31,871 nucleotides of DNA from a virus (lineage: Duplodnaviria > Heunggongvirae > Uroviricota > Caudoviricetes): the IMG/VR virus record IMGVR_UViG_2548876962_000012; one strand, 5' to 3'. Shown here piece after piece: positions 6,932 to 31,871 of this stretch. A program made the translations under genes and the position numbers. Each line of letters begins with the position of its first letter. Within the stretch, counting starts at the first letter, position 1. The notes under the pieces were generated by a model. It saw only the letters and a program-made list of their open reading frames with translations, was not told the DNA's origin and did no database searches.

Positions 6932-7900
6932 TTATATGCCATTTTCAAGATCTGCGATTAGGTCAAAGCATAGCGATTTATAATCCTTTACGATCTTCGG
7001 CCGAATGGTTATTGAATGATATTTCAGCAACGCAAGGGCGAATGAGGAAAAATACAGCCAGAACCAGTCATCTTCCGGTAAATTGACATCTTGCACAGTC
7101 GCCGACCAACGCCCGTAAATGGGAGGATGAGTCTCTGAACCCGCGAGACGGTTTCTTCCTGTTGCGAAAAGGATAAAGGCGAATGCTAGAGCGATCCCCA
7201 TCATACGCTTCATCCTAACCTTTTCCGGGGGATACCCACTGCTTGCGGCGTACTCATCGATCTTGGATATCATCATATCCTTAGCGAACTGATCACACAG
7301 ATATTCTTCGTCCTTCGGGTCTTCCGGTGCATTTCCTTCAACTGAGAAAATTACGTGCTTCAGTTCATGTAAAAATACATATGCCGTAGCCATGCACATA
7401 AGATCATATACTGCAGCGCTCTCTGAATCTGACGGCCTACCCTTCTCAGGCTCAGGAATAGCCACTGGCCATTCAAAGTCGTCTTCATGAAATGCAGTGC
7501 TCAGGTCTTTCACTGCATCAAGTATCGACTTGAAGGCTTCATCTTCTGCTGCCTGATCTGGAATCTTGTTGATTTTGTTTATGTCGAGAGTGGCACCGCA
7601 TGATTTGAACAATTCAATCAACGAACAATAACAATGTAACGCCTGCATTCCCGCATAACTGAAAAGCCATATTTGACGCATTGATCTGCTGGTGTACTGG
7701 ATTGCGGAGAATCCTCCAGCATCTAAGTTAAATCCTTCGCGGTCACCAATCAGTCGGAACTGGGCATCATAATCGTTAGCGATAGATTCAATCTCTGATG
7801 CTCTCTCAGGAACAACACCGTCAAAAAGTTTTCGAACATTGTCTGTCGTTTCCACTAGTCCTCCTATGGCATATAAAAGTGCGTTATACCGGCCCCGCAA
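6932..7900 (-). CDS. Cargo protein with HExxH motif, putative zinc metallopeptidase, 322 aa (Z/fun position)
   Basis: AT-rich ORF between G and FI; HELKH at residues 178-182 followed by acidic residues; one hydrophobic segment (GIALAFAFILFATG); TTG start at 7900 preceded by a strong SD (AAGGAAG, 6-nt spacer); own downstream terminator. Confidence 0.6.
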   Translation of the reverse strand: MRGRYNALLYAIGGLVETTDNVRKLFDGVVPERASEIESIANDYDAQFRLIGDREGFNLDAGGFSAIQYTSRSMRQIWLFSYAGMQALHCYCSLIELFKSCGATLDINKINKIPDQAAEDEAFKSILDAVKDLSTAFHEDDFEWPVAIPEPEKGRPSDSESAAVYDLMCMATAYVFLHELKHVIFSVEGNAPEDPKDEEYLCDQFAKDMMISKIDEYAASSGYPPEKVRMKRMMGIALAFAFILFATGRNRLAGSETHPPIYGRWSATVQDVNLPEDDWFWLYFSSFALALLKYHSITIRPKIVKDYKSLCFDLIADLENGI

Positions 7901-13376: not shown

Positions 13377-14162
13377 ATGGTCAGCTATAATGTGACTAAT
13401 GTGTGGGAGCTAATCGTCTTGTATCTTTTGGTCTTTGTAGTATTAGCATTTTTTAGCTTTGGTAAAAGTAACCTTATGAGGCTTATTGCACATTATTTCA
13501 AATTTGGATATTCAGATAAAAAATTAAAAAGACTGGACCGCGAGTGGCGCGACATTCAACTATTTAAAATAATTAACGGAATCAATGTATCAGGCATCAA
13601 AGATGTGAAAATGATACAGCAGGGGTTGATTGATGGAAAACTAAAAACATCGGATTTTTTCCTTACTCGCTTCTGGGGAGACATAACAGAACCGCCATGC
13701 ATCACAAAAACAATGAGTGCAGTCCTGGCCGGAATTCTTTATATTACCTTCGCATGTTGCATACACAACGAGCAATCTGCCATAGTAGAGGATGCCATAG
13801 CCATACCATATAAAAATATGATGTACCATGTTTATAATGACAAGGTTCTTTTGTTCTCCGACAATAAAACAGATAAGTTCTATAAAGCGTTTAGCATTGC
13901 CGATTGCAAGAGACTGCAGAACACTTTTGTAACAGACACACTTCCTGCAATCGCCTGCAATAAGCTCTTACAGCTAAACGAGGAGGACTCCGAATGGTTA
14001 AGTCAGGAGATTAAAGATAATAACAGCCACAGAAAAACATTATTAATAATATCCCTCGTCTATTTCACTTCAGGTCTGGTTATACTTCTGTCATATACAA
14101 AATTCCTTTACGCCAATAAAAAAGTTGTAGAATACAAATCATCAAATAAAAACCACTCATAA
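13377..14162 (+). CDS. Cargo membrane protein, three predicted TM helices, 261 aa (orf30 position, opposite strand)
   Basis: Very AT-rich ORF on the opposite strand to all flanking late genes; ATG with SD AAGGAG at 7-nt spacing; hydrophobic segments at the N-terminus, middle (MSAVLAGILYITFACCI) and C-terminus (LLIISLVYFTSGLVILLSY). Confidence 0.6.
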   Translation: MVSYNVTNVWELIVLYLLVFVVLAFFSFGKSNLMRLIAHYFKFGYSDKKLKRLDREWRDIQLFKIINGINVSGIKDVKMIQQGLIDGKLKTSDFFLTRFWGDITEPPCITKTMSAVLAGILYITFACCIHNEQSAIVEDAIAIPYKNMMYHVYNDKVLLFSDNKTDKFYKAFSIADCKRLQNTFVTDTLPAIACNKLLQLNEEDSEWLSQEIKDNNSHRKTLLIISLVYFTSGLVILLSYTKFLYANKKVVEYKSSNKNHS

Positions 14163-20602: not shown

Positions 20603-22375
20603 ATGACCATCACCACAGACACCACTCTTTTACACGACCCGCGTCGTCAGGCGGCGCTGCTGTACTGGCAGGGGTTTTCCGTGCCGCAGATTGCCGCCAT
20701 GTTGCAGATGAAACGCCCGACGGTGCAGAGCTGGAAACAGCGCGACGGCTGGGACAGCGTTGCCCCCATCAGCCGTGTCGAAATGAGCCTGGAAGCGCGG
20801 CTGACCCAGCTCATCATCAAACCGCAGAAAACCGGCGGTGACTTCAAGGAAATTGACCTGCTGGGACGCCAGATTGAACGACTGGCACGGGTCAACCGTT
20901 ACAGCCAGACCGGCAACGAGGCAGACCTTAATCCGAACATCGCTAACCGCAACAAAGGCGGGCGTCGCAAACCGAAAAAGAATTTTTTCAGTGACGAGGC
21001 CATCGAAAAGCTGGAGCAGATTTTCTTTGAGCAGTCTTTCGAATATCAGTTGCACTGGTATCGCGCCGGGCTTGAGCACCGCATCCGCGATATCCTGAAA
21101 TCCCGCCAGATTGGCGCGACGTTTTATTTTTCCCGCGAGGCGCTGCTGCGCGCCCTGAAAACCGGTCATAACCAGATTTTTCTGTCGGCCAGTAAAACGC
21201 AGGCGTATGTGTTCCGCGAATACATCATCGCCTTTGCCCGGCTGGTTGACGTTGACCTGACCGGTGACCCGATTGTCCTGGGCAATAACGGCGCAAAACT
21301 GATTTTTCTCGGCACCAACTCCAACACCGCACAGAGCCATAACGGCGACCTGTACGTCGATGAGATTTTCTGGATCCCGAATTTTCAGGTACTGCGTAAG
21401 GTGGCATCAGGTATGGCCTCACAGAGTCACCTGCGCTCGACCTATTTCTCCACCCCGTCCACGCTGGCGCACGACGCCTACCCGTTCTGGTCGGGTGAAC
21501 TGTTCAACCGGGGTCGCGCCAGCGCCGCCGAACGCGTGGAAATCGACGTCAGTCATAACGCCCTTGCCGGAGGTCTTCTCTGTGCGGACGGCCAGTGGCG
21601 GCAGATTGTCACCATTGAGGACGCGCTGAAAGGCGGCTGCACGCTGTTCGACATTGAGCAGCTCAAACGTGAAAACAGCGCCGACGATTTTAAAAACCTG
21701 TTCATGTGTGAATTTGTTGACGACAAAGCGTCGGTGTTCCCGTTCGAGGAGCTGCAACGCTGCATGGTCGACACGCTGGAAGAATGGGAAGACTATGCGC
21801 CGTTTGCCGCGAATCCGTTCGGCTCCCGCCCGGTATGGATTGGTTACGACCCGTCACACCGTGGCGACAGTGCCGGATGCGTGGTGCTGGCACCGCCGGT
21901 GGTGGCCGGTGGCAAATTCAGAATACTTGAGCGTCACCAGTGGAAAGGCATGGACTTTGCCACTCAGGCTGAATCCATCCGCAAACTCACCGAAAAATAC
22001 AACGTCGAATACATCGGTATTGATGCCACCGGCCTCGGTGTCGGCGTGTTCCAGCTCGTGCGCTCGTTCTATCCCGCCGCGCGCGACATCCGCTACACGC
22101 CGGAAATGAAAACCGCAATGGTGCTCAAGGCAAAAGACGTCATCCGCCGTGGCTGTCTGGAATATGACGTCAGCGCCACCGACATCACCAGCTCGTTTAT
22201 GGCTATCCGCAAGACCATGACCAGCAGCGGACGCAGCGCCACCTATGAGGCCAGCCGCAGCGAGGAAGCCAGCCACGCCGACCTCGCCTGGGCGACCATG
22301 CACGCCCTGTTAAATGAGCCACTCACCGCCGGTATCAGCACTCCGCTGACATCCACCATTCTGGAGTTTTACTGA
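20603..22375 (+). CDS. P: Terminase large subunit gpP, 590 aa
   Basis: ATG at 20603 with SD GAGGT; 590 aa as in P2 P; stop overlaps the Q start (TGATG). Confidence 0.9.
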   Translation: MTITTDTTLLHDPRRQAALLYWQGFSVPQIAAMLQMKRPTVQSWKQRDGWDSVAPISRVEMSLEARLTQLIIKPQKTGGDFKEIDLLGRQIERLARVNRYSQTGNEADLNPNIANRNKGGRRKPKKNFFSDEAIEKLEQIFFEQSFEYQLHWYRAGLEHRIRDILKSRQIGATFYFSREALLRALKTGHNQIFLSASKTQAYVFREYIIAFARLVDVDLTGDPIVLGNNGAKLIFLGTNSNTAQSHNGDLYVDEIFWIPNFQVLRKVASGMASQSHLRSTYFSTPSTLAHDAYPFWSGELFNRGRASAAERVEIDVSHNALAGGLLCADGQWRQIVTIEDALKGGCTLFDIEQLKRENSADDFKNLFMCEFVDDKASVFPFEELQRCMVDTLEEWEDYAPFAANPFGSRPVWIGYDPSHRGDSAGCVVLAPPVVAGGKFRILERHQWKGMDFATQAESIRKLTEKYNVEYIGIDATGLGVGVFQLVRSFYPAARDIRYTPEMKTAMVLKAKDVIRRGCLEYDVSATDITSSFMAIRKTMTSSGRSATYEASRSEEASHADLAWATMHALLNEPLTAGISTPLTSTILEFY

Positions 22376-23409
22376 TGAGCAAGAAAAAAGGGAAAACACC
22401 GCAACCTGCGGCAAAAACAATGACCGCCAGCGCCCCGAAAATGGAGGCATTCACCTTTGGTGAGCCGGTGTCGGTACTCGACCGCCGTGACATTCTGGAT
22501 TACGTCGAGTGCATCAGTAACGGCAGATGGTATGAGCCACCGGTCAGCTTTACCGGTCTGGCAAAAAGCCTGCGTGCTGCCGTGCATCACAGCTCACCGA
22601 TTTACGTCAAACGCAATATTCTGGCCTCGACATTTATCCCGCATCCGTGGCTTTCCCAGCAGGATTTCAGCCGCTTTGTGCTGGATTTTCTGGTGTTCGG
22701 TAATGCGTTTCTGGAAAAGCGTTACAGCACCACCGGTAAGGTCATCAGACTGGAAACCTCACCGGCAAAATATACCCGCCGTGGCGTGGAGGAGGATGTT
22801 TACTGGTGGGTGCCGTCCTTCAACGAGCCGACAGCCTTCGCGCCCGGCTCCGTGTTTCACCTGCTGGAGCCGGATATCAATCAGGAGCTGTACGGCCTGC
22901 CGGAATATCTCAGCGCCCTTAACTCTGCCTGGCTGAATGAATCAGCCACGCTGTTCCGCCGCAAGTATTACGAAAACGGCGCACATGCCGGATACATCAT
23001 GTACGTCACCGATGCCGTGCAGGATCGCAACGATATCGAAATGCTCCGCGAAAACATGGTGAAGTCGAAAGGCCGCAACAACTTTAAAAACCTGTTTCTC
23101 TATGCCCCACAGGGGAAAGCCGACGGCATTAAAATTATCCCGCTCAGTGAAGTGGCAACGAAGGACGATTTTTTTAATATCAAAAAAGCCAGCGCCGCTG
23201 ACCTGCTGGACGCGCACCGCATCCCCTTTCAGTTGATGGGCGGCAAGCCGGAGAACGTCGGGTCGCTGGGCGATATTGAGAAAGTGGCAAAGGTCTTTGT
23301 CCGCAATGAGCTTATCCCGCTACAGGACAGGATCCGCGAGATAAACGGCTGGCTCGGCCAGGAAGTCATCCGCTTTAAAAACTACTCACTGGACACTGAC
23401 AACAGCTGA
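22375..23409 (+). CDS. Q: Portal protein gpQ, 344 aa
   Basis: 344-aa ORF adjacent to cos; P2 Q length and position. Confidence 0.9.
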   Translation: MSKKKGKTPQPAAKTMTASAPKMEAFTFGEPVSVLDRRDILDYVECISNGRWYEPPVSFTGLAKSLRAAVHHSSPIYVKRNILASTFIPHPWLSQQDFSRFVLDFLVFGNAFLEKRYSTTGKVIRLETSPAKYTRRGVEEDVYWWVPSFNEPTAFAPGSVFHLLEPDINQELYGLPEYLSALNSAWLNESATLFRRKYYENGAHAGYIMYVTDAVQDRNDIEMLRENMVKSKGRNNFKNLFLYAPQGKADGIKIIPLSEVATKDDFFNIKKASAADLLDAHRIPFQLMGGKPENVGSLGDIEKVAKVFVRNELIPLQDRIREINGWLGQEVIRFKNYSLDTDNS

Positions 23410-23801: not shown

Positions 23802-24254
23802 TTATGCTTCCTCTGTATTCATAAGTCTTAAAAGAATTTCTCCAGTGCTAGCATCAGACATTAGATCATTTAACGCTTTGATTAACGTTTCTTTATCTTT
23901 GCACCTAACATCCCGTTTGTTATAAGAAATCACACATGGATAACCATCTGATTCATTTATCTTCCAAACAGCAATGTTCTCTTTAACTTCTGTTTGCTCT
24001 CTCTTAGTTACGAACGATAGAGCTTCGTAATCGATGTAAGGGTTGATGTTTGTAATCGAACTCACAACGGCAGTAAGCGCTGTCTGATTAGGTGCGAGTT
24101 TTTTTTCACTCGTAACTTTCAAAAACACTCGCCCTTGACTAAGCTCCTTTACACTGTCACTTAAGTCACTGATAACACTAAAAATTTCTTCTTTATTTGA
24201 TCTTGCTTTTTTGGCTGCCTCTAACCCCACAGCTAATGAATTTTTGAAATCCAT
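23802..24254 (-). CDS. Cargo protein of unknown function, 150 aa, downstream partner of the EEP gene
   Basis: AT-rich ORF; ATG 4 nt after the EEP gene stop with a GAGAGG SD-like element; no TM segments or recognisable motifs. Confidence 0.6.
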   Translation of the reverse strand: MDFKNSLAVGLEAAKKARSNKEEIFSVISDLSDSVKELSQGRVFLKVTSEKKLAPNQTALTAVVSSITNINPYIDYEALSFVTKREQTEVKENIAVWKINESDGYPCVISYNKRDVRCKDKETLIKALNDLMSDASTGEILLRLMNTEEA

Positions 24255-24258
24255 TTTT

Positions 24259-25161
24259 TTAACCTCTCGTAATTACAGCGATAACAGGTAAATGATCAAA
24301 GTTAGTTTTTGGACTTGTCACCAAATTTTTAAAGACTTCATCGTTAATGATTTTAACCTCATCCTCCAAAAGATTCCAATCTCCACCAGAAATGAATGAA
24401 GAGGAGAAAATAATTTGATCAAATGTATGCCAACGGGTTACAGCACCGCCACTGTAATAATATGTCCCGTAAGTACTCAAATGATGATCTTCTGATGGAA
24501 AACTAATTGAAGCCCCCATAAAATTCCAAAAAGGGTTGTATAAAAAAATATCTTTTTTGACAACCAAGTCTCTATCCCTTGTTGCCCCTAAAGCATGTGT
24601 AATAGATTTATTAAAGGGATCGTCATTGTAATCACCTAAAAGAATAAAATACTTTCCTGACTTTTCCTCTATACATCTACTGATCGCTCCTCGCAAAGCT
24701 TTTCCTAATTCATATCGTTTTGGCATTTCTTCATTAGAATCATTACCTCTCATAGGCCAATGCGATATGTAGAAAAAAAAATGATCCCCACTATTATTAT
24801 GCATGAGCTGAACTTCTTGCCCGGCTCTTACCGCTCCTAACAATGACTGTTCAACAATACTTTTACTATCAATGTAAGTGAAAGTAGCTAGCTTTATAAG
24901 AATGCACATATCATGTTTTATGCTTCCTTCAGTGAAAGTCCCATCATATATTATGAACCCTTTCTCTGAGAAAATCTCCTCTAAAACCTTAATATCTGAT
25001 GGTGATATTTCTCCAAGACATAGAATATCAACATTATGACTCATCAAAATATTTGTTATAAGAGCAAATGCTACATCCAACTCTTCAGGAGTAGAACGAT
25101 CTCTTTTAACCGCAGGAGATATCCCCGTATTCCACCAAGCGATTGAAACAGCCTCACACAT
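24259..25161 (-). CDS. Cargo EEP-fold (endonuclease/exonuclease/phosphatase family) protein, 300 aa
   Basis: Very AT-rich ORF; ordered EEP signature motifs: WWNTG near the N-terminus, DILCLGE (the LCLQE-type motif), LLGDYNDD (GDxN), and FDHLPV (SDHxPV-type) at the C-terminus. Confidence 0.7.
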   Translation of the reverse strand: MCEAVSIAWWNTGISPAVKRDRSTPEELDVAFALITNILMSHNVDILCLGEISPSDIKVLEEIFSEKGFIIYDGTFTEGSIKHDMCILIKLATFTYIDSKSIVEQSLLGAVRAGQEVQLMHNNSGDHFFFYISHWPMRGNDSNEEMPKRYELGKALRGAISRCIEEKSGKYFILLGDYNDDPFNKSITHALGATRDRDLVVKKDIFLYNPFWNFMGASISFPSEDHHLSTYGTYYYSGGAVTRWHTFDQIIFSSSFISGGDWNLLEDEVKIINDEVFKNLVTSPKTNFDHLPVIAVITRG

Positions 25162-25278: not shown

Positions 25279-27552
25279 TTACTTCTCAGAAAACCCTGGC
25301 CATCCCTTATCGGTCGCATAAATGAACTTTTTGTTACCGTAAAGCACCGCTGCCCCACGAGCCAGCGCGTCGAGCTCCCATCGCTGCGGCCTGATACCGC
25401 TCTGAGCAAGGTCAACGCGGATACGGGTAATTTGCATTCGTTCCGACCGGGTCAGTCTGGCCGATGGTGCCATTTCATGCTGTTTTAACGGGCTTCCGTT
25501 TCTTTGCTGACGGTTTGGCGTTCTCCGGTCGTGTTTTAATGCACCCCTGAGCGCCCTCACGACCTCCGGTTCATTCCATTCAATAACACCGTCATCAACC
25601 AGATTAAGCACAGCTGCGGCGTGCTCAGAAGGTGTGGGAGCCGGTAACGAAGTATCACCACCTGTGAGCTTTCCACAGTTATTGACAGGACTCCGAGGCG
25701 CGGCGATGCCGCTTTTTAAAGTCAAAGGCTCAACGACCGGAACTTTCGGCACAATGCGCCAGTCCGTCGTTCTGGTGATATGAATATGACGCGCGCCGAG
25801 ATGCGGCGCGTAAATGCCGACCACTCTCTCGACTTCTTCCTCGTACTCGTTAACGTCATCCGACGGGCTACGGGCGACCCTGACAGTCTGACGATCGCGC
25901 GGGACATTTGCCCCACCCTGCGCGCTGATATACAACGCAAAATCACCACTGTCTGCGGCGGCGCGTGCAGCCTCGACGCGCTCGTCAAACTCATCAGCAA
26001 TGCTGACGCCGCGCGGCAATTTGCGTAGTTCACGGTAAGCCCCCATTGTCGGCAGACCAACCGTTTTAAATTGCGGGATGCGCCACGTTGACGCCCATGC
26101 AGTAACAGCCGCGGCAGTATCTTTCAGAGGTCTGCCGGTATCGTTATCGAGCTGACCATCCAGTGCATAGCCGTCGATGTTTTTTGAGATGTATTTCGCG
26201 ATATACCCCGCAGCACCGCCCCGATTAAGGTGTTTTGCCTGAAAACGGTTTCGCGCGGCTCCTCTTTCGTCGCCATCCTCTTTGAGCGCATAGCGACGCA
26301 TGATTTCGATAATCTGGTTACGCTGGCGCGGATTACAAAAAAGCATCATATGCCAGTGCGGCGTTCCGTCGTGGTGTGGCTCGACGACACGCAAACCGTA
26401 GACCTGTAAATCATTATCCTTGAATGCCGTGCGCATCAGGCTCCAGATACGGCAGAGATAACGCTGCGCATCCTTTGGATTAAATGCCTCATCGTTCCAG
26501 CCGTGATTTAGCTGGACGGTTTTACTTTCGCCTTTTCTGACCTGACGTGTCGGATGATACTTTGACGGCGCGGTCAGCGTGATAAACATCCCCACATCAC
26601 CCTCTGCTGCGGCGTAACGCTCAATACCGGCGATGGTGTTCATCAGCTCCATCCGGCGAATTTCAGGATTAGAAATACTGCCCATCACCTTACTGATAAG
26701 GTCGATGCGCTCGCCGGTTTCCCTGTTTTCGAGGTCACACGATTTAAGAAATTCCAGATTTGCCTGGCGGCGTGCACGCACATCACGAATGGCATGTTTA
26801 CTGGCATAAGGAGAACGGTCTTTATTGACCTCCCCGACAGCTATCAGTAACGCTTCATGCCAGCGCATACGCTGACCTTTAAGCTGATGAGTCCACCACT
26901 CATCGTTAAACAGGCGGGCAATGGCAGAATATGCCTGCCTCGTGGTCATCTGTCTTTTACGGTATTTTTTCCAGTAGAGAGGGGAAATATTGAAAGCTCG
27001 TGCAGCGCCAGCAACATGACCATACAGGTGAGCCTGAGCCTCATCCGTAAACAGTGATTCTTTTTCGCCATGCGCATCCACCCAGGCATCGCTGAGTTCC
27101 TCATACATCATGAAAAGCTGCGATGAGATACGGGCGGCAAACTTTTTCAGCTCCTTGTCATTCATTCCCGGCAGGCGCGCATAGTGGTCACGCTCTGCCA
27201 GAAACAGCAACGACGCGTCGGTGTTCATTTCATGGCGCTGATTCACACGCTCAATGCGCGGCCATAAACGACGCTGAAAAGTGGATGTGAGGAAATAAAA
27301 CCCGTGCACCGGGCTTTTATTGCGCCGGATGTAGTCATAGCGTGAAGTAAACAGCGAGCGCAAAAAGTAAGGCAGGCGATTAATCGTGGATAAAACACCT
27401 TGCACCTGACGCATCTCGTCACGTGTAAGGGGTCTTTCGCGCCCGACGGCCTCGCGTGGCGCGTTCCAAGCATAAGCACCGGTAAACGTCTCACCGGTGC
27501 CTGCGGCAAATGCTGACGGAGGGACAAAACGCCCGGAGGCTTTAACGGCCAT
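25279..27552 (-). CDS. A: Replication initiation protein gpA (rolling-circle initiator), about 757 aa
   Basis: Large ORF at the P2 A position with paired catalytic-tyrosine-like motif (YIAKYISKN); start assigned to the ATG at 27550-27552 (MAVKASG) because the longer track ORF begins at a TTG at 27594. Confidence 0.85.
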   Translation of the reverse strand: MAVKASGRFVPPSAFAAGTGETFTGAYAWNAPREAVGRERPLTRDEMRQVQGVLSTINRLPYFLRSLFTSRYDYIRRNKSPVHGFYFLTSTFQRRLWPRIERVNQRHEMNTDASLLFLAERDHYARLPGMNDKELKKFAARISSQLFMMYEELSDAWVDAHGEKESLFTDEAQAHLYGHVAGAARAFNISPLYWKKYRKRQMTTRQAYSAIARLFNDEWWTHQLKGQRMRWHEALLIAVGEVNKDRSPYASKHAIRDVRARRQANLEFLKSCDLENRETGERIDLISKVMGSISNPEIRRMELMNTIAGIERYAAAEGDVGMFITLTAPSKYHPTRQVRKGESKTVQLNHGWNDEAFNPKDAQRYLCRIWSLMRTAFKDNDLQVYGLRVVEPHHDGTPHWHMMLFCNPRQRNQIIEIMRRYALKEDGDERGAARNRFQAKHLNRGGAAGYIAKYISKNIDGYALDGQLDNDTGRPLKDTAAAVTAWASTWRIPQFKTVGLPTMGAYRELRKLPRGVSIADEFDERVEAARAAADSGDFALYISAQGGANVPRDRQTVRVARSPSDDVNEYEEEVERVVGIYAPHLGARHIHITRTTDWRIVPKVPVVEPLTLKSGIAAPRSPVNNCGKLTGGDTSLPAPTPSEHAAAVLNLVDDGVIEWNEPEVVRALRGALKHDRRTPNRQQRNGSPLKQHEMAPSARLTRSERMQITRIRVDLAQSGIRPQRWELDALARGAAVLYGNKKFIYATDKGWPGFSEK

Positions 27553-27817
27553 ATGAGCCAAAAGCCTCTGAACAACGCTTGCTGAGTTGCTCAACCTGCG
27601 CGTTTAAATCAGCAAAAGACTTTGCGCTTCCGGTCAGAATATCGTGATGCATCAGGCCGGAAACGAGCTGGCTTAATTTCGGGTAATAACCAACCACCGC
27701 CAGCCATTCCTGACCGGCGTTTTTACCGCTTTCCGCTCTCTTTTTCTCGTGGAGAATAAACTGGAAGCTGTCACTGGTAACGACATAACGTTCGCCAATT
27801 TCAATACGAATACTCAT
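27542..27817 (-). CDS. Early-operon small protein, 91 aa, hypothetical
   Basis: ORF overlapping the A start by 11 nt and the upstream gene stop (ATGA); position of a P2 early-operon small ORF. Confidence 0.6.
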   Translation of the reverse strand: MSIRIEIGERYVVTSDSFQFILHEKKRAESGKNAGQEWLAVVGYYPKLSQLVSGLMHHDILTGSAKSFADLNAQVEQLSKRCSEAFGSYGR

Positions 27818-28797: not shown

Positions 28798-28861
28798 GAC
28801 TTTCTCCAGGCAAAAAGAAGCCCCCGCACGATTAAGTGCGTTAAAAACTTTGGTTAATTAC

Positions 28862-29362
28862 TTAATGCAGATATTGCTCTGGTTTTACCGACGTCAGAAT
28901 TGTCGGTGCATATTCAAACAGACTAAATAATTCACGTAATGCACGGAATAAAGCATCACGCCAGTAACATGACTCTTCATTAATTCGCCAGTATGGCTGG
29001 TTAAATTCTTTTTCTGTCAGTCGTGCGTGCATAAATAAAGTACGGCGCTGACTGACAGTTAAAAAGCTAATATATGCATACTCACTTGCACCGACCTGAC
29101 GGCGTTTTGAGAATGCCCCACGCAATTCATCAATTGCACAAACCAGCCGTTCACGTTCGACGTCGTTCATTTCTTCAAAACGCATCGTTGCGTGACGCTG
29201 TTTTAACTGCGCATGAAAGCAAACCGTTAACCGTTCGCGCTCCATCATCTGATTATAATAATCACATGTATCCTGCCAGCGAGGGACGGCAAGATGCTTA
29301 CCAATTATCCGGCGCATAGCTGCTGGCTGTTTTTCAACGAGATTGAGCGTCATCACTGTCAT
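28862..29362 (-). CDS. B: Replication protein gpB, 166 aa
   Basis: 166-aa ORF; P2 B length and position; ATG overlaps the upstream gene stop. Confidence 0.85.
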   Translation of the reverse strand: MTVMTLNLVEKQPAAMRRIIGKHLAVPRWQDTCDYYNQMMERERLTVCFHAQLKQRHATMRFEEMNDVERERLVCAIDELRGAFSKRRQVGASEYAYISFLTVSQRRTLFMHARLTEKEFNQPYWRINEESCYWRDALFRALRELFSLFEYAPTILTSVKPEQYLH

Positions 29363-29529
29363 TTCCAGACCCTCCGGCTTTTCAGAAAGGTCAGAGCCTT
29401 CTTTAACGGACTCTGTTTTTTGGTGCGGATAATGATTCCTTTGCGTCCCTTCCCGTGGGTGATGGTGAAGTCAATCGCCCTGGGGCTTTCGTTACGCAAT
29501 AACTGAGCAATACAACGAGGTTCCTGCAT
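29359..29529 (-). CDS. Small basic hypothetical protein, 56 aa
   Basis: Start taken at the internal ATG at 29527-29529 (MQEPRC), preceded by AGGAGG at 4-nt spacing; stop overlaps the B start. Confidence 0.5.
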   Translation of the reverse strand: MQEPRCIAQLLRNESPRAIDFTITHGKGRKGIIIRTKKQSPLKKALTFLKSRRVWK

Positions 29530-29646
29530 AACTCCTCCTGAAACAGAGCCGGTTTTTAGCCATGTCCGGCGCATGGTCTTGTGGTACTATCCAATTGCTT
29601 TCACTCCAAATGTAAGCAAGTAGTTCGTAACACAAGGAATAACGAC

Positions 29647-29823
29647 ATGAATGATTTAGAAAAAACCAAGTTTCTTTTTGAGCAGACCTGTTCAGTCATC
29701 GGTGGAGCACTTACTGAACAATCAAGAATGCCTCTCCCTGTAGAGGTACGCATCGAGCGGTTGTTTGATGCTGTTTACCCAGTTCTTGAACGAAAGCTCG
29801 AAGAAAAACTTGGGAAAAAATAA
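29647..29823 (+). CDS. Small antisense-oriented ORF inside the early operon, 58 aa
   Basis: ATG at 29647 with SD AAGGAA at 7-nt spacing; fills an otherwise non-coding 290-bp gap; its stop abuts the stop of the convergent minus-strand ORF (TAATTA). Confidence 0.35.
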   Translation: MNDLEKTKFLFEQTCSVIGGALTEQSRMPLPVEVRIERLFDAVYPVLERKLEEKLGKK

Positions 29824-30012
29824 TTATTTCTCGTGCTGGTAAAGAAAATCTAAAATTCCCGCGATACAGCTAATTTCTCTGCCGGACAATTGCTTACCTA
29901 AACGTCCGGCTTCTTGTTTCAGAAAGTCACCAGCCCTCACCGACAAATCCAGCATTTCTTGTGGCGTTAATGCCTCGTTATCTGCTGCAATAACACTCTG
30001 TTGTTTTCCCAT
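29824..30012 (-). CDS. Small hypothetical protein downstream of cox-like gene, 62 aa
   Basis: Start taken at the ATG at 30010-30012 (MGKQQSV), preceded by AGGAGG at 5-nt spacing. Confidence 0.5.
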   Translation of the reverse strand: MGKQQSVIAADNEALTPQEMLDLSVRAGDFLKQEAGRLGKQLSGREISCIAGILDFLYQHEK

Positions 30013-30022
30013 AATTACCTCC

Positions 30023-30379
30023 TTAGGCCGCGTGGCCATGTCTGGATTTGCTGTAACTTATGCGATTCTTCCAGTCATGCCATTCTGTCGGAGCTTCATC
30101 GACTAGTTGAGCTGCATATTTGTCCCACTCACGACGATTAATCCATAACTCAGCATGACCGCCCGGCTTTAACGGGTCTGTCATATAGAATGCTGGCAGC
30201 TTTCCAGCTCGTGCCATTTCAGCCACCGCACGAGGAGTCTTACCGATGTAAAGAGCAAAACCCTCTTTCGACAGTAAATCTGACGGATCCGCAGCCAACT
30301 TAATGGAATCACGCTTGTTTTTTTTAAGAGCAGAAACTTCTTGTCTTTTCTCGTCACAAATTTCAGATCCGACATTCAT
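30023..30379 (-). CDS. cox: Cox-like excisionase / early-operon regulator (HTH), 118 aa
   Basis: First gene of the early operon, divergent from C; segment YIGKTPRAVAEMARAGKLPAFYMTDP resembles the Cox-family HTH; ATG with GAGGA SD. Confidence 0.6.
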   Translation of the reverse strand: MNVGSEICDEKRQEVSALKKNKRDSIKLAADPSDLLSKEGFALYIGKTPRAVAEMARAGKLPAFYMTDPLKPGGHAELWINRREWDKYAAQLVDEAPTEWHDWKNRISYSKSRHGHAA

Positions 30380-30482
30380 TTTGCTATCCTCACATTGATG
30401 TCAGCGATCTAGAGCGATTTAGAGTCGTTAGATGCTGATAAATCATATCAACTATGCAAAAGAATACGAGGTTAGAGAATTT
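30380..30482. promoter_or_regulatory. Immunity switch region (divergent Pe/Pc promoters and operator)
   Basis: 103-bp intergenic region between the divergent cox-like and C genes; three imperfect direct repeats at about 10-bp phasing (tctagagcga / tttagagtcg / ttagatgctg). Confidence 0.5.
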
Positions 30483-30782
30483 ATGTCAACTGACACTAGC
30501 GAACGTTTGAAGCTTATCCGTGAGTCTGAACGTCTGAAAATGAAGGAGGTAGCTGAACTAGCTGGCATCAACTACACCACATATGCAGGTTATGAATCAG
30601 GTAAGGCTATGATGTCCCTAGAAAATGCTAAGAAGTTTTTTAAAGTAGAAAGGTTCAGAAAATACCGTGACTGGTTCATGTTTGATGAAACTGATCCAGC
30701 AGCTGGACAAATAGCCCCGGCTCTCGCACACATTGGGCAAGACTCAACAATCTTGCACCACTCAGACCAAAAGACTGGCTGA
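30483..30782 (+). CDS. C: Immunity repressor C, 99 aa
   Basis: Start taken at the ATG at 30483 (MSTDTSERLKLIRESERLKMKEVAELAGINYTTYAGYESG, HTH), giving 99 aa; C-terminus GQIAPALAHIGQ...SDQKTG resembles P2 C. Confidence 0.8.
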   Translation: MSTDTSERLKLIRESERLKMKEVAELAGINYTTYAGYESGKAMMSLENAKKFFKVERFRKYRDWFMFDETDPAAGQIAPALAHIGQDSTILHHSDQKTG

Positions 30783-30875
30783 CGATTTATTCAGCATATG
30801 TGTGCAGTAAATGTACGAAAGAAAATTGCATTAATTTTCAAGTAGTAGAAGTAAACAGCGTCATCGGAGGGCTTT

Positions 30876-31871
30876 ATGTCTATTAAAAAGCTCGATGATG
30901 GTCGTTATGAAGTGGACGTCAGACCGCAGGGTGCAGATGGAAAACGTATCAGGCGGAAATTTAAAACTAAAGGTGAAGCTCAGGCATTCGAACGTCATGT
31001 GCTGGTTAATTACCACAACAAAGAGTGGTTAGAGAAGCCAGCCGACCGCCGAACTCTTACAGAGTTGTTAGGCAGATGGTGGATATATCACGGAAAATCA
31101 CATGAGCGTGGAGATATTGAACGAGGGCGTTTAACGACAATAATCGCCAAATTTGCAGAAATGGGAGTGTCCAGAGCAGACCAGCTAACAAAGAAAACGA
31201 TAACTGATTATCGCGTTGTAATGATGAACGATGGTCTAAAACCAGCCAGCGTAAATCGGCATCTGGCAATAATGAGCGGGATGTTCACCAAGTTAATTGA
31301 CGCCGGTGAATACCACTCTCACAACCCGTTCCGTGAGGTTAAGCGGTTACGTGAAGCTGTTACGGAAATGGCTTTTTTGTCCAGTGAAGAGATTACGCGG
31401 CTGTTATCCATGCTTGATGGCGATGAATTAAATGCAACGCTGGTCTGCCTTTCTACTGGTGGACGTTGGAGTGAAGTGTCTAATTTAAAAGCTGAACACA
31501 TCATTAACCAGATGGTTACGTTTATGAAAACTAAAAACGGAAAGCGCAGGACAATTCCCGTTTCGCAGGACCTGATTAAACGGATCAAGACCAAAAATTC
31601 AGGCAGGCTTTTTAATGCCAGTTACTACAAAGTGCGCAACGCTCTCAGGGAAGTAAAACCCGATTTACCTGACGGACAGGCAGTGCATGTTTTGAGGCAT
31701 ACATTTGCCACACATTTTATAATGAATGGAGGTAACATAATCACATTGCAGCGCATCCTGGGTCATTCTAACATTCAGCAAACTATGACCTACGCACACT
31801 TTGCACCGGATTTCTTACAAGATGCAGTGACTCTTAACCCGGTGTCAGGAATGTCCATAATGCGTCCATAA
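30876..31871 (+). CDS. int: Tyrosine integrase, 331 aa
   Basis: N-terminus MSIKKLDDGRYEVDVRPQG as in P2-family Int; C-terminal catalytic region HVLRHTFATHF...LGHSNIQQTMTYAHF with the R, H-x-x-R and Y residues. Confidence 0.9.
   Translation: MSIKKLDDGRYEVDVRPQGADGKRIRRKFKTKGEAQAFERHVLVNYHNKEWLEKPADRRTLTELLGRWWIYHGKSHERGDIERGRLTTIIAKFAEMGVSRADQLTKKTITDYRVVMMNDGLKPASVNRHLAIMSGMFTKLIDAGEYHSHNPFREVKRLREAVTEMAFLSSEEITRLLSMLDGDELNATLVCLSTGGRWSEVSNLKAEHIINQMVTFMKTKNGKRRTIPVSQDLIKRIKTKNSGRLFNASYYKVRNALREVKPDLPDGQAVHVLRHTFATHFIMNGGNIITLQRILGHSNIQQTMTYAHFAPDFLQDAVTLNPVSGMSIMRP

Follow-up and report, generated by a model that had tools for sequence, protein, structure and literature searches.

Phage P2 serves as a textbook example of a temperate phage, with an early operon viewed as a simple one-directional lytic transcript. 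The DNA considered here, IMG/VR virus record IMGVR_UViG_2548876962_000012 (31,871 nucleotides; hereafter the window), ends on its right with the control region of a P2-like (Peduovirus) phage, and the early operon of that region holds an accessory insert of 493 bp between the cox-like gene and a homologue of P2 orf78. The insert contains two small genes whose stop codons abut: orf62, which lies in the early operon right after cox, and orf58, which lies on the strand of C and int (the lysogenic strand), antisense to the early operon. On balance the stretch is probably a mobile accessory module of P2/186-like phages, two interlocked small genes of which one is a lysogeny-oriented, moron-like gene and the other an early lytic gene, expressed reciprocally by way of convergent transcription. 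The genes of the region, with lengths in amino acids (aa), and the ribosome-binding sites (Shine-Dalgarno sequences, SD) of the minus-strand open reading frames (ORFs) are as follows.

29530-30022: accessory insert, 493 bp, between the cox stop and the orf78 start
29647-29823, plus strand: orf58, 58 aa (phrog_14615, E value 1e-37)
30012-29824, minus strand: orf62, 62 aa (phrog_12968, E 1.5e-19), stop codon at 29826-29824
30024-30018, minus strand: SD of orf62, AAGGAGG, overlapping the cox stop
29821-29826: abutting stops of orf58 (TAA) and orf62, TAATTA
29529-29359, minus strand: 56-aa ORF, the homologue of P2 orf78 (phrog_273, E 1.6e-40)
29539-29534, minus strand: SD of the 56-aa ORF, AGGAGG
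29362-28862, minus strand: homologue of replication gene B (phrog_235, E 3e-104)
30379-30023, minus strand: cox-like gene, 118 aa, first gene of the early operon (Pfam Phage_Cox, E 8.6e-29), stop codon at 30025-30023
30483-30782, plus strand: repressor gene C, with a helix-turn-helix
30876-31871, plus strand: int

The limits of the insert were set by megablast of the window against 50,697 phage records and by alignment to P2, in which 10 nt separate the cox stop from the orf78 ATG; the 493 bp of the window sit exactly there. The insert is missing from P2, from L-413C and from 70+ Peduovirus records, all of which align on both flanks of the junction, and among isolated phages an identical copy was found only in the Yersinia phages vB_YpM_115 and 117, whose annotations call both ORFs hypothetical. 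Most of the insert is present in 47 of 5,426 complete E. coli genomes, as two alleles of at least 95% and about 86% identity, compared with 1,669 genomes (1,904 places) that carry orf78. Two scans of species-representative genomes yielded no relative of Orf58 or Orf62; the module is too rare to be among them. Base composition differs modestly from that of the flanks, with a guanine-plus-cytosine (GC) fraction of about 0.42 over 29500-29999 against 0.48-0.50 on either side.

A preliminary description of this region had listed the three ORFs, their SDs and the abutting stops, all of which are present, and had counted both minus-strand ORFs as additions relative to P2. That count needs correction. 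The 56-aa ORF belongs to the family of P2 orf78 and shares its position directly upstream of gene B, whose start it overlaps by 4 nt, and it has about 96-97% nucleotide identity to orf78 of P2 and L-413C, in a match that spans the annotated orf78 and B of L-413C. It differs from P2 orf78 only in its first 3-4 codons and SD, at the insertion boundary, and so belongs to the core early-operon context outside the insert; only orf62 and orf58 are extra. The homology searches proposed for the three peptides thus place each of them in a PHROGs family. The B homologues of related loci match PF26815 (Phage_RepB).

Very probably, orf58 is a genuine protein gene with its own independent signals. The ratio of nonsynonymous to synonymous substitution rates (dN/dS; Nei-Gojobori) is 0.11-0.26 at a saturated dS of 0.6-2.4 among four alleles, namely the window and loci L003 (E. 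coli BEN2908), L006 and L009, and the plus-strand frame of orf58 is the sole frame of six without stops in all four. In the first 15 codons the window and L009 differ by seven synonymous changes and no nonsynonymous one. Because of these ratios and the single stop-free frame, orf58 is neither a chance ORF nor a pure non-coding RNA. The gap between orf62 and orf78 had been described as non-coding on the minus strand, and this holds across homologous loci, where no minus-strand frame stays open throughout. For orf62 dN/dS is 0.25-0.5, and as judged from the sequence comparisons both orf58 and orf62 are shown to be real genes.

Homologues of Orf58 occur in metagenomes as well as in E. coli, Enterobacter hormaechei, Providencia rettgeri and Pectobacterium versatile. 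When 1.84 billion representative proteins were searched with a profile, 28 matched; 26 of these are separate proteins of 53-72 aa whose alignment spans their full length, and the other two are long repetitive proteins that we regard as spurious. The family was seen here only in the early regions of P2/186-like phages of Enterobacterales, and its members share their genomic position in every independent collection that yielded one. The gene is always opposed to the early genes, and the convergent stops are 0-21 nt apart or overlap by 4 nt. Conservation is concentrated at the two ends of the protein, in an N-terminal motif (M-x-x-E-E-K-x-x-F-L-F-x-Q-T-C) and a C-terminal one (F-D-x-x-Y-x-x-L-E-x-K-L-x-E-K-L), with a variable middle. 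An AlphaFold model built on an 11-sequence alignment is a two-helix hairpin of residues 3-24 and 32-56, with a predicted local distance difference test score (pLDDT) of 88. Comparison of this model with PDB and BFVD folds returned nothing below E 0.8, a profile search of PDB sequences found no relative, and Pfam, NCBIfam and PADLOC gave no match; within PHROGs the only match is to phrog_14615, a family of unknown function.

Runs of A lie at the 3' end of orf58, between 29800 and 29823 (GAAGAAAAAC...GGGAAAAAATAA), and the database versions P0003 and P0004 of Orf58 are frameshifted at them (...LEKNSKK...); sequencing errors or a tendency to slippage at these sites may be the cause. One error-ridden contig, L031, was left out of the analysis. 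The window and the BEN2908 allele (29500-29700 against L003 1468-1670) match fully from orf78 to a point ~50 nt into orf58, past which identity is about 80-86%, a drop that indicates a recombination breakpoint inside orf58.

The signals that accompany orf58 were traced by aligning the 150 nt upstream of its ATG in 11 diverged loci and by searching beyond its stop for terminators. In the window they are as follows.

29560-29576: inverted repeat CCATG-N7-CATGG, at about -37 to -21 of the orf58 promoter and overlapping its -35 region
29582-29590, plus strand: predicted extended -10 sigma-70 promoter, TGGTACTAT
29597-29617, plus strand: stem-loop GCTT...AAGC at the 5' end of the predicted orf58 mRNA, beginning at the predicted +1
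29634-29639, plus strand: SD of orf58, AAGGAA, with a 7-nt spacer
29881-29919, plus strand: predicted intrinsic terminator of the orf58 unit, consisting of GCCGGAC, a 16-nt loop and GTCCGGC (29881-29910) followed by TTCTTGTTT, within the codons of orf62

The motif TGnTAnnnT is the sole invariant block upstream of orf58, present in 11 of 11 loci (E. coli, Enterobacter, Providencia, Pectobacterium and metagenomic) at 38-72 nt from the ATG. Its positions fit an extended -10 sigma-70 promoter, with TG at -15/-14, T at -12, A at -11 and T at -7, and it falls within the interval 29580-29640 in which a plus-strand promoter had been sought by the preliminary description. A canonical -35/-10 scan missed it because there is no good -35. 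Repeats resembling the C operator are absent from this promoter and cluster instead at 30408-30428, so that control of orf58 by C is not evident. From the predicted start at about 29597, roughly seven bases past the -10, every orf58-family locus can form a stem from the first base of the transcript, and a listing of the stems locus by locus shows that the arms differ and covary:

L016: GCCTG / CAGGC
L019: GCCTC / GAGGC
L020: GCTTTTA / TAAAAGC
L026: GCCTGT / ACAGGC
L028: GCGCCCGT / ACGGGCGC

Such 5'-terminal hairpins are classic mRNA stabilisers, and the stem-loop presumably stabilises the orf58 mRNA. Translation signals are conserved as well, an AAGGA/AGGAG-type motif being kept in the homologous loci.

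Terminators were defined as a stem of at least 6 bp that includes four or more GC pairs, a loop no longer than 20 nt and five or more T among the next 9 nt, lying at most 130 nt past the stop. A plus-strand hairpin with T tract of this kind was found in 9 of 12 loci, the minus strand gave none (0/12), and dinucleotide shuffles produced one in 0-3.7% of trials per locus. The hairpin of the window has a predicted energy of -13.3 kcal/mol (z -2.4); its loop exceeds 8 nt, and a canonical terminator scan missed it. In the loci of the orf62 family the terminator keeps the same offset, 46-88 nt past the orf58 stop and within the coding sequence of the partner, and the stems themselves bear no relation to one another: the E. 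coli types have GCCGGAC, Pectobacterium (L019) has GGTCAGTG, and L028 has GGCCAGAAATA with a 10-nt loop and a TCTTCTTTT tail. L017 has a 12-bp hairpin at this position, with a poor T tract. The predicted orf58 RNA would thus be about 320 nt long, from ~29597 to ~29919, and its last ~95 nt would be antisense to the 3' half of orf62. With promoter, 5' stem-loop, SD, a 58-codon ORF and terminator, orf58 looks, from its sequence signals, like a self-contained moron-like transcription unit.

Upstream of the promoter lies one further conserved element. In 10 of 11 loci an inverted repeat with arms of 5-6 bp and a spacer of 5-9 nt ends 3-5 nt before the TG of the promoter, and four covarying versions were recognised (CCATG/CATGG in the window, CCACG/CGTGG in L019, CCGCG/CGCGG in L026 and GCTGC/GCAGC in L028). 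The repeat could be a co-evolving operator, a terminator that insulates on the plus strand, or a hairpin formed ahead of orf78 in the early transcript. Overlapping it at 29548-29570 is GCCGG-N13-CCGGC, another inverted repeat, which is partly conserved; it was considered as a minus-strand terminator and rejected, its T-rich tail not being kept in L009, L016 and L019. Inverted repeats flanking orf58 (CTGAAACAGAGCCGG and CCGGCTTCTTGTTTCAG) that might have suggested a miniature inverted-repeat transposable element were likewise set aside, as a repeat search gave no support and they are not kept in L019.

The gene that faces orf58 is most often a member of the orf62 family. Orf62 homologues are 57-75 aa long with 25-60% identity, and such a gene converges on an orf58 homologue in the window, BEN2908 (L003), L006, L015, L017 (Enterobacter), L020/L021, L019 (Pectobacterium) and L028. 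Of the IMG/VR contigs, the four with a relative of orf62 all have orf58, and four of the five with orf58 have orf62. In L026 the partner, of 65 aa, resembles Orf62 in size and pattern, and its homology is not detectable. As far as these loci indicate, the orf62 family is the usual, not the obligatory, convergent partner of orf58. An AlphaFold model of Orf62, built on two sequences only, is a helical hairpin (residues 17-41 and 44-61) with a disordered N-terminus and a pLDDT of 80. No match was found in Pfam, NCBIfam or PADLOC, PHROGs gave only the function-unknown phrog_12968, and comparison with PDB folds and a profile search of PDB sequences were both negative. That Orf58 and Orf62 might be paralogues was rejected by hhalign, which shows the families to be unrelated. 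A Rop-like four-helix bundle that binds RNA kissing complexes was also entertained and dropped, given these fold and sequence comparisons with PDB for the two proteins. Searches of Pfam, NCBIfam, PADLOC and PHROGs with the alternative partners (68, 198, 132, 103, 153, 61, 75, 57 and 65 aa) returned nothing beyond PHROGs families of unknown function and insignificant matches; among the latter are two insignificant PADLOC matches of the L006 partner (E 0.014 and 0.028). The cox genes that adjoin the module are of differing types (87, 90, 91, 118 and 153 aa), so the module is independent of immunity type.

Other insertions have used the same site. In E. coli 90-3040 (L005 1597-2402, NZ_CP027459.1) the cox/orf78 junction holds an unrelated convergent pair, 68 aa on the plus strand and 198 aa on the minus strand, with its own plus-strand hairpin and T tract (TGCGCCA...TGGCGCA TATTTTTCT). 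Neither protein has a family match; at its N-terminus the 198-aa protein shows weak similarity to the N-terminus of the 132-aa partner in L009 (E 3e-4). In E. coli 2012C-4227 (L004) an IS2 is inserted at this junction. Pectobacterium versatile (L019 2663-3937, CP086369.1) carries two consecutive convergent pairs between C and cox, 75 aa minus/70 aa plus and then 153 aa minus/61 aa plus; since both lie between the repressor gene and cox, it is there the orf62-like gene, not cox, that faces the repressor first. Surveys of P2 accessory genes have dealt with hotspots at A-Q (old/tin), in the tail region (Z/fun) and at int-att (PMC13586616, PMC9122126, bioRxiv 10.1101/2024.10.15.618418, PMC3448106); a hotspot between a tail protein and CI has been described (bioRxiv 10.1101/2024.10.15.618418), and the generic integrase-to-primase interval accounts for about 8% of P2 defence systems (PMC13586616). 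A literature search found no paper on these proteins, on vB_YpM_115 or on a cox-orf78 insertion. The cox/orf78 junction of P2/186-like phages might be an unrecognised slot for interlocked convergent pairs, in which a small protein made in the prophage and another protein made early in lytic growth would act as a second toggle between lysogeny and lysis, by way of head-on transcription and the embedded terminator, an idea that we consider unlikely as a whole. In functional terms the junction pairs could be an exclusion or defence factor with its early antidote, or an Orf58/Orf62 protein-RNA circuit built on the sense/antisense overlap.

The arrangement suggests how the module might work. Because orf62 starts 10 nt after cox, with no room for a promoter of its own, it should be made together with cox from the early promoter, Pe, at the onset of lytic growth. 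In a lysogen, C would repress Pe, the -35-independent promoter of orf58 would fire unopposed and Orf58 would accumulate; conversely, orf58 transcription would oppose leaky readthrough from Pe into the replication genes. Upon induction, polymerases from Pe, some 800 bp away, would have to cross the whole orf58 unit to reach orf78, B and A, and the Pe RNA would be fully complementary to the orf58 mRNA. This readthrough would silence orf58 through occlusion of its promoter, collisions between polymerases and pairing of sense with antisense RNA, with Orf62 being made meanwhile. Convergent promoters are established as a source of transcriptional interference in phage 186, where pR opposes pE (PMC7708051). 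We regard reciprocal lysogenic and lytic expression of orf58 and orf62, as predicted from the layout of the signals, as evenly poised, and direct antagonism between the two proteins as a tentative suggestion on the doubtful side. As both are modelled as helical hairpins of about 60 aa, the most likely activity would be the binding of another protein (each other or a common target) rather than enzymatic.

Several observations weigh against this account. The partner of orf58 is an unrelated protein of 132 aa in L009-L011 and another of 103 aa in the Providencia-type loci L016 and L033, and in L005 the plus-strand 68-aa gene, unrelated to orf58, is read from the same promoter segment, which shows no difference up to the -10; for these reasons the data do not require a specific interaction between Orf58 and Orf62. 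Nor is divergence parallel, BEN2908 and L015 having orf62 genes 90% identical and orf58 genes only about 55% identical, and nothing found indicates a binding target for either protein. At 10-18 nt, the terminator loops are of unusual length for the intrinsic type, and the strict terminator definition leaves out two or three loci (L009, L017 and L026). The orf58 promoter and terminator are themselves predictions from conservation.

Prophages are reported to carry genes that pair defence with self-immunity, as with BstA, and a reading of this kind would give the module just outlined a specific function: Orf58 made in the lysogen would exclude other phages or P4-type satellites, and the facing early gene (orf62, or the gene for the 103-, 132- or 198-aa protein) would be the phage's own antidote, first made on induction. 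The orientation and autonomous promoter are typical of prophage conversion genes such as P2 old, tin and fun, the integrase-primase interval is already associated with defence systems (PMC13586616), and both the variability of the facing slot and the second, unrelated pair at the same junction would fit. Against this, no member has a PADLOC, Pfam, NCBIfam or functional PHROGs match, a soluble helical hairpin of 58 aa has no recognisable effector domain, and the family is rare, so that we rate the defence reading as improbable. In a toxin-antitoxin or addiction role, a toxic small protein would be neutralised by its counterpart or by the overlap of antisense RNA; the preliminary description had suggested that the antisense gene could be a regulatory or toxin-antitoxin-like element. 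An independently signalled antisense gene is borne out, and a regulatory role by way of convergent or antisense transcription is plausible; for the toxin-antitoxin part no positive evidence was found. The cassette is small, has two genes, is horizontally mobile and is co-inherited, and its embedded terminator imposes a 3' sense/antisense overlap of ~95 nt. However, its genes are convergent instead of forming a co-transcribed operon, they match no toxin-antitoxin, PADLOC or Pfam family, the peptides are not hydrophobic or membrane-like (grand average of hydropathy -0.33 and -0.29), neither protein is predicted to have the fold of a DNA-binding antitoxin, orf58 is also found beside unrelated partners, and the frameshifted orf58 variants P0003 and P0004 stand in assemblies with orf62 showing no obvious loss. 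Taken together these points leave a toxin-antitoxin pair distinctly unlikely.

The remaining alternatives give the protein a lesser part or none. The antisense promoter could be of the establishment type, like 186 pE or lambda pRE, transcribing through cox to C and int or acting as a brake on leaky Pe transcription into B and A, with the ORF secondary. It is convergent with Pe from ~800 bp downstream and points at cox, C and int, and 186 offers a precedent in the convergence of pE with pR (PMC7708051). Yet a conserved terminator lies ~60-95 nt past the ORF, the extended -10 is good and shows no sign of activator dependence, the Orf58 protein is under strong purifying selection, and most P2-like phages lysogenise without the module; we think this reading very unlikely. 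Finally, the plus-strand ORF might be due to chance, or the gap might encode only a non-coding RNA, as had been suggested beforehand. The ORF is short, the region is moderately AT-rich and structured elements are present in the 5' stem-loop and 3' hairpin. Here the substitution pattern is effectively decisive: with strong purifying selection on the plus reading frame, stops in all other frames, full-length proteins recovered by the profile search, a conserved SD and no match in an Rfam scan of 28800-30900, the probability of a chance ORF or an RNA-only gap is close to negligible.

From E. coli to Pectobacterium and Providencia, then, a gene with conserved promoter and terminator signals is set against a P2-type early operon, which would add both a place and a mode to accessory-gene carriage in these phages. 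The module is possibly an extra layer of lysogenic/lytic control or of benefit to the host of the prophage, and the small-protein families phrog_14615 and phrog_12968 gain a clear, testable model of expression. Should the module be phenotypically silent, it would be just one more pair of phage ORFans.

Elsewhere in the window there are other candidate accessory genes. A 322-aa protein (6932-7900, minus strand) has a Peptidase_U49 match and fits the PADLOC 'Lit' model (E 1.8e-14), making it a likely Lit-like abortive-infection protease; its gene sits among tail-region genes, in an apparent Z/fun-type hotspot. Between the portal gene (22375-23409) and gene A (25279-27594), at an old/tin-type hotspot, two accessory genes occupy 23802-25161 on the minus strand, one for a 300-aa protein of the endonuclease/exonuclease/phosphatase family (PF19580, E 6.8e-16) and one for a 150-aa protein without matches; neither fits a PADLOC model. 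In the late region, a 261-aa ORF (13377-14162, plus strand) lies on the strand opposite to its neighbours and has no Pfam or PADLOC match.

The module was also compared with known systems. Neither Orf58 nor Orf62 matches a known anti-phage defence system in PADLOC-DB 2.0. Type II toxin-antitoxin loci have co-directional, co-transcribed genes with a toxin or antitoxin domain, which is not the case here, and type I loci combine a small hydrophobic membrane toxin with a non-coding antisense RNA, whereas both products of the module are predicted to be soluble. With type I loci, other cis-antisense loci and sar of the P22 immI region the orf58 unit does share a promoter inside an operon that fires against it, and overlapping RNAs; its antisense transcript differs in being, as predicted, the mRNA for a protein under purifying selection, with products that are soluble and not hydrophobic, and nothing found places the module among these loci.

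The orf58 unit also has a likeness to morons and to the P2 conversion genes old, tin and fun/Z. Like these, orf58 is a promoter-gene-terminator unit that is missing from close relatives, has a GC content below that of its flanks and is oriented for possible expression from a repressed prophage; the precise insertion, own promoter and terminator (both predicted) and differing base composition that characterise morons were all found. It differs in its product, which matches no known conversion or defence protein, and in its place, inside the early lytic operon between cox and orf78, antisense to it and away from the A-Q, tail-region and int-att hotspots, with a terminator embedded in a co-inherited lytic gene.

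The other comparison is with the switches of the P2 family, such as 186 pR against pE and pL, or P2 Pe against Pc. There too, within one phage family, a promoter in the lysogenic direction faces the early lytic promoter, a geometry from which transcriptional interference would be expected to make expression reciprocal. The geometry is all that is shared with 186 pE and lambda pRE, which depend on an activator and send their transcript into the immunity repressor gene. The extended -10 of orf58 is probably constitutive, not CII-activated, since it is of the extended type; it lies ~800 bp from Pe, its transcript would end after ~320 nt and not run into the repressor gene, and what it appears to express is a conserved protein of its own.

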